5,969 bases of DNA, taken from IMG/VR virus record IMGVR_UViG_2703718816_000007, one strand, 5' to 3'. A program made the position numbers and the translations under genes. How positions within the stretch are numbered: position 1 is the first letter of the stretch; the number at the start of each line of letters is the position of its first letter. Source of the DNA: a virus. Taxonomy: Duplodnaviria > Heunggongvirae > Uroviricota > Caudoviricetes. Positions 4,611-4,777 of this stretch are shown in pieces. Under the pieces are notes generated by a model. The model had not been told where the DNA came from. It saw only the letters and a program-made list of their open reading frames with translations, and searched no databases.

Positions 4611-4736
4611 TCATGACGGAATAAAAATTCTGAATATCTTCACATTTTCACAAACTGCCTGTGGCGCTGATAATTGCGCAGCGTTACAGTTTTTTCGGGT
4701 CAATAAAAACAAAACTCCTTTGTGGTTAATCTTCAT
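4611..4736 (-). CDS. Speculative 41-codon small ORF in the I-J' spacer
   Basis: Manual translation from ATG 4736..4734: MKINHKGVLFLLTRKNCNAAQLSAPQAVCENVKIFRIFIPS, stop TGA at 4613..4611. Only a weak GGGA about 7 nt upstream serves as ribosome-binding site. A hairpin plus U-tract follows the stop immediately. An ORF this short can arise by chance. Confidence 0.2.
   Translation of the reverse strand: MKINHKGVLFLLTRKNCNAAQLSAPQAVCENVKIFRIFIPS
4647..4674 (+). promoter_or_regulatory. Candidate sigma70 promoter on the plus strand (antisense to the tail operon)
   Basis: TTCACA (4647..4652), 16-bp spacer, GATAAT (4669..4674). Predicted transcription start is near 4681, pointing toward the plus-strand terminator at 4745..4777. 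Confidence 0.25.
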
Positions 4737-4744
4737 TGTCTGTT

Positions 4745-4777
4745 CCCGCAGCCTCCATACACTGCGGGATTTTTTTA
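4745..4777 (+). terminator. Plus-strand intrinsic terminator abutting the 3' end of gene I
   Basis: CCCGCAG (4745..4751), 10-nt loop, CTGCGGG (4762..4768), then ATTTTTTTAT (4769..4778). On the minus strand the hairpin is preceded by an A-run, so it only works in the plus direction. It ends 4 nt before the I stop codon (4782..4784). Confidence 0.35.

Follow-up and report, generated by a model that had tools for sequence, protein, structure and literature searches.

Does the spacer between tail assembly gene I and tip protein gene J of a lambdoid prophage encode a small RNA on the strand opposite to the tail operon? The question is raised by a 5,969-nt stretch of DNA (hereafter, the window), which is a lambdoid prophage tail region with its genes read on the minus strand. 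It is most closely related to chromosomal prophages of E. coli and to Stx-converting phages. A sequence-only reading of the window had proposed that a promoter and a terminator on the plus strand define a small antisense transcript at this junction. Our analysis supports the small RNA reading, as the same I-J locus encodes experimentally detected small RNAs in EPEC and O157. We consider it highly probable that positions 4647-4776 (+) constitute a self-contained small RNA "moron", a divergent allele of PasB of EPEC and EcOnc22-24 of O157 that would be expressed as its homologues are. The small RNA family is already known, and the window adds a new and divergent member to it.

The genes around the junction were taken from a list of open reading frames. 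K (NlpC/P60; 5327-5962, minus strand) is followed by tail assembly gene I (4782..5429, minus strand; Pfam Lambda_tail_I, E = 8.5e-13), whose stop codon occupies 4782-4784. A 237-nt spacer (4545-4781) separates I from J' (4395..4544, minus strand), a duplicated N-terminal fragment of tip protein J with 49 codons, whose translation agrees with the beginning of the full-length J ORF at 3627. The duplication is visible as a 119-nt direct repeat (4432-4550 vs 3515-3633, 97% identical), and J' is followed by an insert of ~798 nt and then by full J from 3627 downwards. Based upon the duplicated 5' end of J and the insert behind it, the prophage appears to be damaged. The J-proximal part of the spacer also holds a terminator-like hairpin on the sense strand (4587-4608, minus strand), followed by UUGUUUUUGUG (whole feature 4576..4608) and located ~30 nt upstream of the J' ribosome-binding site. 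This hairpin is kept in all long spacers, with variation at its seventh pair (T.G, T-A or C-G). It adjoins the small RNA unit and is not a part of it.

A promoter scan recovered the near-consensus rightward promoter that had been claimed, with a -35 hexamer TTCACA at 4647..4652 and a -10 hexamer GATAAT at 4669..4674 on the plus strand, separated by 16 nt and matching at 10 of 12 positions. No minus-strand promoter was found within the spacer by the same scan. The window holds 10 such sites, compared with 4.1 +/- 1.9 in shuffled sequences; the promoter match is therefore not beyond chance alone, and the case rests on comparison with other sequences.

The rho-independent terminator (4744..4776, plus strand) is formed by arms at 4744-4751 (TCCCGCAG) and 4762-4769 (CTGCGGGA), which yield an 8-bp stem with a 10-nt loop (4752-4761) and are followed by T7 (U7 in the RNA) at 4770-4776. 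The hairpin folds at -13.9 kcal/mol (z = -4.26), and none of 200 shuffles folded as well. A terminator scan had missed it owing to a loop limit of 8 nt, the actual loop being 10 nt. Read on the minus strand, the stem has A7 before it and ACAG after it; it is therefore a terminator on the plus strand only, as the sequence-only reading had stated. Some distances given there needed correction: the end of the U-run is separated from the complement of the I stop codon by 5 nt (ATGCT) rather than 4 nt, and the gap between the -10 hexamer and the hairpin is 69 nt rather than about 65 nt. For the transcript, which had been placed at about 4681..4777, the start stands and the end moves to 4776. The predicted small RNA of the PasB/EcOnc22 family would thus run from ~4681 to 4776 (+), with a presumed start at the G 7 nt past the -10 hexamer and a length of ~96 nt, antisense to the I-J spacer of the tail operon. 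A fold of the whole predicted RNA is unexceptional (z = -1.78), as is that of PasB (z = -0.68), and the single-sequence folds of the two differ. An Rfam scan of the whole window at E <= 1 returned only chance matches (IRES_Bip and sR32); PasB is absent from Rfam 15.

PasB (pathogenicity-associated small RNA B) of EPEC O127:H6 E2348/69 is an 83-nt RNA encoded in prophage PP6 on the minus strand of NC_011601.1 (1466343-1466261), between E2348C_1436 and E2348C_1437, where it was detected with the Northern probe AATCCCGCAGTGATCGCGGAGCT (Pearl Mizrahi et al. 2021, PMC8550237 Table S6). It has been described as embedded in a phage structural-gene operon (Zhu, Shabalina and Storz 2026, bioRxiv 10.64898/2026.05.13.724894). 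In RefSeq its neighbours are a tail assembly protein gene (end 1466255) and gpJ (start 1466496), from which it follows that PasB is antisense in the I-J spacer with its 3' end 6 nt from the end of I. End to end, the spacer of the window aligns with the PasB locus, including the J-proximal half of the spacer, and the flanks are collinear. In both, the element occupies the same spacer, runs antisense and ends 5-6 nt short of the I stop; in the window it is flanked by I and J', and its U-run ends 5 nt from that stop. Both loci carry TTCACA-16-(T/G)ATAAT, GCGTTA, a T-run, AACTCCTT, ATCTTCATT and CCCGCAG...CACTGCGGGATTTTTTTATG. The resemblance accordingly extends from TTCACA-16-NATAAT through GCGUUA, the U-run, AACUCCUU and AUCUUCAUU to the CCCGCAG/CTGCGGG stem and the U7 tail, the terminator arms being identical except for the outermost pair.

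In a global alignment of the predicted RNA with PasB, 79 of 104 aligned columns were identical (76%), and blastn with a word size of 11 matched PasB nt 10-83 to window positions 4702-4776 at 79.5% identity (E = 3e-11 in the window). On locus position, sequence homology and the terminator described above, the window element belongs with PasB. The two differ in the loop of the 5' hairpin and the loop of the terminator, in the linker before the seed (UCACAU in PasB vs UUGUGG in the window) and in the -10 hexamer (TATAAT vs GATAAT). With a blastn word size of 28, no match was obtained between the window and PasB, the longest shared word being 17 nt. Since the 2026 census of PasB used blastn with a word size of 28 and a query coverage of >75%, the window allele would not have counted as PasB in it. 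Only a few nucleotide differences have been reported among PasB variants (Zhu, Shabalina and Storz 2026); with an allele ~76% identical, the PasB family is broader than that census described.

Expression, size, Hfq dependence and trans partners are known from the published work on the homologues, and would apply to the window allele by analogy. PasB was confirmed by Northern blot and was higher under the non-activating condition (PMC8550237). In the lysogen its DESeq2 baseMean was 482 and 1082, compared with 4.8 for I and 15 for J, and in delta-hfq it changed by log2 -6.8 and -2.4 (PMC8550237). It ranked 15th by number of RIL-seq interactions and had the traits expected of a trans-acting small RNA, being the second RNA in chimeras, having a U-tract, and having >67% of its partners in CDS or 5'UTR (PMC8550237).

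A second set of homologues was found in O157:H7 Sakai. EcOnc22, EcOnc23 and EcOnc24 are Hfq-CRAC peaks in Sp15 (the Stx1 prophage), Sp14 and Sp11, respectively (Tree et al. 2014, PMC4104026 Table S2). EcOnc22 is placed at 2902714-2902774 (+); Northern blotting gave a size of ~85 nt, and the RNA loses stability in delta-hfq. When located in NC_002695.2, all three fall in I-J spacers where the tail genes are on the minus strand and the peaks are on the antisense strand. The spacers of Sp11, Sp14 and Sp15 hold identical 133-nt cassettes of the same family as the window element, and the predicted cassette RNA of Sp15 occupies 2902836-2902926 (NC_002695.2). The published EcOnc coordinates refer to an older version of the genome, for which a shift of ~+128 to +146 was estimated. 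This range was calibrated with the Rfam position of AgvB1 (+137 to +146 at 1.94 Mb) and with the STnc100 homologue, taken as EcOnc06 (at least +99 at 3.49 Mb). The older version is presumably ~128 bp shorter than the current record of 5,498,578 bp. With the estimated shift applied, the three EcOnc peaks start 6-24 nt inside the cassette RNA. EcOnc22-24 are very likely this I-J cassette, a placement that depends on the estimated shift.

The Sakai RNAs, which are ~85 nt long, bound by Hfq and destabilised without it, lie antisense in I-J spacers, as does the predicted window RNA. The terminator arms, the TTCACATTT block upstream and the seed block GUUAAUCUUCAU are common to both. Across the element as a whole, the Sakai cassettes are identical to the window at 104 of 142 columns; they differ in that the -35 hexamer is degenerate (TCCGGC), the -10 hexamer is AATAAT, and the 5' part of the body (UUACUUUUUUGAUGCCUGAAAAAU...) is unlike that of the window. 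These comparisons suggest that PasB (2021) and EcOnc22-24 (2014) are the same family. No such link is stated in the PasB row of Table S6, which names no homologue, or in the 2026 preprint, in which "EcOnc" does not occur. A 2021 review lists the targets of EcOnc22-24 as unknown. The reported sizes of 83 and ~85 nt fall 6-15 nt below the predictions, which indicates that the 5' end is uncertain or processed.

In order to compare spacer variants, I-J junctions were gathered by a protein I search and by a pattern scan of viral contigs. The protein I search of genome contigs returned mostly lambda-type junctions with a spacer of ~62 nt and no cassette. Its matches included many lambda-like I genes, 61% identical, from unrelated genera on contigs of low coverage; these are most likely contamination. 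In every longer, cassette-bearing spacer examined, the terminator adjoins the end of I. The set of unique cassettes numbered 74.

Among 41 unique promoter-bearing variants, the -35 hexamer is TTCACA in 25 and degenerate in the others (TTCTGT, TCCGGC), including the expressed copies of Sakai (TCCGGC). Within the -10 hexamer A2, T3 and A5 are invariant and T6 is present in 40 of the 41. The first base is T or A in 37 variants and G, the window allele, in three; given the rarity of this G, the promoter of the window allele should be weaker. The spacing between the hexamers is 16 nt in all variants but one. Mean pairwise identity over 46 unique sequences was 0.66 for the -35 hexamer, 0.67 for the promoter spacer and 0.85 for the -10 hexamer. 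The best-conserved promoter-proximal sequence is not the -35 hexamer but a block upstream of it, CATCATGACGGAATAAAAATTCTGAATATCTTCACATT (4609..4646, plus strand; ~-72 to -35 from the predicted start), which is nearly invariant among the spacer variants. At its last eight positions (4639-4646) the mean pairwise identity is 99%, compared with 66% in the -35 hexamer of the same 46 sequences, and the expressed Sakai copies keep the block despite their degenerate -35. Block 4609-4646 may be an UP-like element or an activator site.

The conservation and covariation of the hairpin, proposed by the sequence-only reading as a check, were evaluated in two sets of sequences. In 24 variants of the main family the CCCGCAG/CTGCGGG arms are invariant and the loop ranges from 10 to 16 nt; with invariant arms, no covariation is shown there. 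RNAalifold on these 24 variants likewise returned the invariant terminator only, with no covariation and no consensus 5' structure. Divergent cassettes from the pattern scan of viral contigs, with arms CCCACAGT/ACTGTGGG and TCUCCCGU.../...ACGGGAGA, retain the stem. Two-sided changes occur at five of ten pairs in these cassettes, and 85% of cells are paired compared with 25-63% in slid controls. Over the 46 unique sequences, mean pairwise identity was 0.99 and 1.00 for the stem arms, 0.56 for the loop and 0.95 for the A plus U tail.

The transcribed part shows the same alternation. At the 5' end, GCGUUA (4681..4686, plus strand) has 94% mean pairwise identity in the 46 unique variants, which supports a transcript start near 4681. 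A U6 run (4690-4695) and an A-rich tract containing four consecutive A-R-N triplets (4702-4713) follow, with identities of 86% and 72%, respectively, and 44% for the stretch between them. This region (4690..4713, plus strand) may form a 5' hairpin or be bound by the distal face of Hfq, the latter role being suggested by the preference of Hfq for A-R-N (PMC4104026). The anti-Shine-Dalgarno-like CUCCUU (4715..4720, plus strand), overlapped by a block (4714-4718) with 86% identity, is a candidate pairing site. Just upstream of the terminator lies the conserved, single-stranded UUAAUCUUCAU (4726..4736, plus strand), which is the most likely candidate for the seed; its portion UUAAUCUUC (4726-4734) is 91% identical across the 46 sequences, and the linkers on either side are 57% and 41% identical. 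The predicted seed of PasB has also been placed immediately before the terminator (Zhu, Shabalina and Storz 2026). The AUCUUCAUU core is common to the window and PasB and is 91% conserved family-wide, with differing flanking bases; the PasB seed is itself a prediction. Conservation therefore falls on the critical bases of the -10 hexamer, its 16-nt distance from the -35, GCGUUA, the stem arms and the seed block, whereas the connectors (the spacer within the promoter, the linkers of the body and the loop of the terminator) vary; such a mosaic is expected from a unit of promoter, RNA and terminator. The sequence-only reading would have been undermined by a lack of conservation of promoter and terminator; among the variants the -10 bases, the spacing and the arms are conserved.

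Matches to the 142-nt element were counted at 4374 places; they come from 1797 of the 5426 complete E. coli genomes and from 141 phage records. Window positions 4681-4781 are 96% identical to the common Stx-phage copies. To judge from these alignments, the window copy is a recombinant that combines a PasB-like promoter region with a transcribed part of the Stx-phage type. The window allele is carried, for example, by E. coli 2014C-3061 (NZ_CP027548.1 1424932-1425073) and by ES5.

For the window allele, we infer expression, the exact 5' end, the seed and the targets as follows. In a lysogen, host sigma-70 RNA polymerase would start near G4681 and stop at U7 (4770-4776); as this stop lies 5 nt before gene I, the antisense transcript would never enter I. 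The one-way terminator would insulate the unit from gene I, the orientation of the unit would hide it from late transcription, and the hairpin would leave late transcription on the other strand unhindered. The ~96-nt RNA would bind Hfq via the terminator hairpin and U tail, and possibly via the A-R-N tract as well. It would act mainly in trans on host and prophage mRNAs through short, imperfect pairing, the likely seed being the single-stranded UUAAUCUUCAU, perhaps together with CUCCUU. Trans action is supported by RIL-seq for PasB and would hold for the window RNA by analogy; a cis effect on the complementary I-J mRNA is possible.

The RNA might instead act mainly in cis, pairing with the I-J part of the late tail mRNA or causing convergent interference, and thereby lower the expression of J and downstream genes. 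Along its ~96 nt it is perfectly complementary to the RNA of the I-J spacer, and its place beside I is fixed in almost all variants; both would fit this role. The sense-strand hairpin conserved just upstream of J would fit it as well, and suggests that the I-J spacer may be a control point. The RNA, however, stops short of the I coding sequence and does not reach the J ribosome-binding site, with ~137 nt between its 5' end and the J' ATG. Furthermore, PasB is Hfq-dependent and has the RIL-seq profile of a trans-acting RNA, with the majority of its partners in CDS or 5'UTR, and the bodies differ greatly among cassettes at a constant position, which fits diversifying trans seeds better. We therefore regard a mainly cis-acting RNA as unlikely.

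It is also rather improbable, in our judgement, that the element is a silent relic, a PasB-type descendant that is transcribed negligibly or not at all in a defective prophage. The rearranged J region and the rare G at the first -10 base would be in keeping with decay, and the exact window allele (at least 95% identity) was found in only 57 records. Yet the window copy has kept the -35 hexamer at 16 nt from a -10 hexamer with all its invariant bases, along with the upstream block, the seed and an intact 8-bp terminator with U7, and the Sakai copies, which have a much poorer -35 (TCCGGC), are still detected by Northern blot and CRAC.

The 41-codon ORF opposite the small RNA (4611..4736, minus strand), which is on the list of open reading frames, was judged to be non-coding. 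The predicted RNA does overlap its 5' part, as had been noted. Across the spacer variants, the start codon is ATG in 21, ACG in 18 and ACA in three, and the open frame ranges from 12 to 54 codons with frequent frameshifts. The ORF was therefore rejected as a gene, and the suggested cis-antisense pair of small RNA and ORF is not a meaningful one. That the conservation reflects the tail strand, as a 41-codon small protein or an I-J mRNA element with an incidental promoter and terminator on the plus strand, is scarcely credible: an ATG-started ORF is present and its first ~20 codons are similar in several variants, but the ATG is lost in about half of the variants and is merely the complement of the conserved seed block (4726-4736), the U-run exists on the plus strand only, and the PasB Northern probe is complementary to the antisense-strand RNA and hence detects that strand.

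Other prophage small RNAs were considered as identities for the element. AgvB and AsxR belong to the Q/stx/lysis region of lambdoid prophages, where they lie downstream of PR' (Tree et al. 2014, PMC4104026). They are similar to the element in being short and Hfq-dependent, in occupying conserved prophage positions and in having conserved 3' and variable 5' parts. They differ from it in lying at the PR' moron site rather than in the tail operon and in having no sequence similarity to the window, and both were rejected. The Rfam models for AgvB, AsxR, Esr41, STnc100, DicF, IsrK and others gave no relevant match in the window at E <= 1; as a control, the AgvB and STnc100 models readily matched their Sakai loci. 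PasA, PasC and PasD were rejected on context, as they are located in the Q/lysis/esterase region.

With the element assigned to the PasB/EcOnc22-24 family, the annotation of the window is settled to the extent that its I-J spacer is not empty and holds a small RNA gene; in EPEC and EHEC, RNAs of this family are made in lysogens and bind Hfq. The comparison suggests that censuses based on near-identity undercount the family by missing variants that are ~76% identical. The basic picture of prophage-encoded small RNAs is unchanged, which makes the finding useful rather than surprising. The more novel parts are the link between PasB and EcOnc22-24, the modular cassettes and tandem arrays, and the presence of a sodC moron at the same junction.

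We judge it evenly balanced whether the I-J small RNA cassettes make up a much larger, modular family from which PasB and EcOnc22-24 are two samples. Such a family may be defined by a shared upstream block (GAATAAAA..TTCTGA..TTCACATTT), a -10 hexamer at fixed spacing, GCGUUA and a terminator with a CCCG core. It may comprise at least three types of body and seed that recombine module by module, and in some phages it may form arrays of two, three or four independently promoted genes. If this is true, the I-J junction is an expandable hot spot at which prophages diversify Hfq-dependent regulators, present in about one in three complete E. coli genomes, a distribution that exceeds the published census of PasB by a wide margin. 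The data suggest that cassettes differing in seed can be arrayed at the junction, and such arrays would be a compact natural system for target change in horizontally acquired small RNAs.

Elsewhere, the I-J junction was observed to hold a sodC gene, or between one and four cassettes in tandem whose bodies differ. In some phages, the gene for the prophage Cu,Zn superoxide dismutase, sodC, lies between I and J. Like the small RNA cassette, this moron is found at the I-J junction, is transcribed against the tail operon and has its own terminator. It differs in being protein-coding and in replacing the small RNA promoter, with the body and terminator of the small RNA remaining downstream.

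The small RNAs EcOnc22, EcOnc23 and EcOnc24, entries from Hfq-CRAC data on O157 Sakai (PMC4104026), are very likely cassettes located at the junction between the tail assembly gene I and the tip protein gene J, an identity that we infer for the Sakai prophages. The predicted cassette RNA of the Sakai locus L125 spans 3337-3427, corresponding to 2902836-2902926 of NC_002695.2, and further Sakai loci are L127 and L128. The comparison suggests that EcOnc22/23/24 and the EPEC small RNA PasB comprise one family; this link is absent from the PasB row of Table S6 (PMC8550237) and from the 2026 Pas preprint.

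In some phages, small RNA cassettes are arranged in tandem within the I-J spacer, with two to four per array. Two cassettes occur in L056, L061 and L064, three in L063, and four in L047, L048, L050 and L051 (for example, L048 670-1495, reverse strand). Every cassette of these arrays has a TTCACATTT block, a -10 element, and a body and terminator of its own; at least three body types are present (...GUUAAUCUUC..., ...AAGGUGACUAUUCG... and ...GGUUAGUCAACAUCG...). In the window, the block immediately upstream of the small RNA promoter (4609-4646; CATCATGACGGAATAAAAATTCTGAATATCTTCACATT) exceeds both the -35 hexamer and the RNA body in conservation, and it is retained even where the -35 of a cassette is degenerate. 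The block may serve as an UP element or as a regulator site.

Another type of I-J spacer, approximately 866 nt in length (L042, L069, L083, L084, L089, L091 and L116), bears, on the J side of the small RNA body, a 219-codon Cu,Zn superoxide dismutase (sodC-like) ORF with its own terminator. This ORF is transcribed against the tail operon and stands in place of the promoter of the small RNA, whose body and terminator are kept downstream.

On the tail-operon (minus) strand, a terminator-like hairpin at 4576-4608 (CAGGCACCC-UCCG-GGAUGCCUG, followed by UUGUUUUUGUG) is kept in every long I-J spacer. Its seventh pair is variable, being T.G in the window and T-A or C-G elsewhere. The ribosome-binding site of J', a duplicated fragment of J, is found ~30 nt downstream of the hairpin, which is predicted to be a site that would halt non-antiterminated transcription ahead of J.

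The 5' end of J is duplicated in the window as a 119-nt direct repeat (97%; copies at 3515-3633 and 4432-4550), and the two copies flank an insert of ~798 nt (3634-4431). The insert is rare, with 24 of 5426 E. coli genomes carrying it, and copies are also present on plasmids. It contains an orphan ORF of 185 aa (3788-4345, minus strand) without a match in Pfam, NCBIfam or PHROG; the label 'IS66 accessory protein TnpB', occasionally given to its product in RefSeq, is unsupported by Pfam. Further within J, a masked run of N (window ~2540-2660) yields a run of X in the translated ORF 2539-3627. Masking may therefore account for the division of J into ORFs of 362 aa and 703 aa, which would then be artefactual.

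The genome-contig search also returned short, low-coverage contigs carrying lambda-like I genes that share 61% identity with the query (L016-L029 and similar loci). Their host assemblies belong to unrelated genera, such as Neobacillus, Pseudomonas, Shewanella and Bradyrhizobium, and these genes most likely represent contaminating phage lambda DNA.
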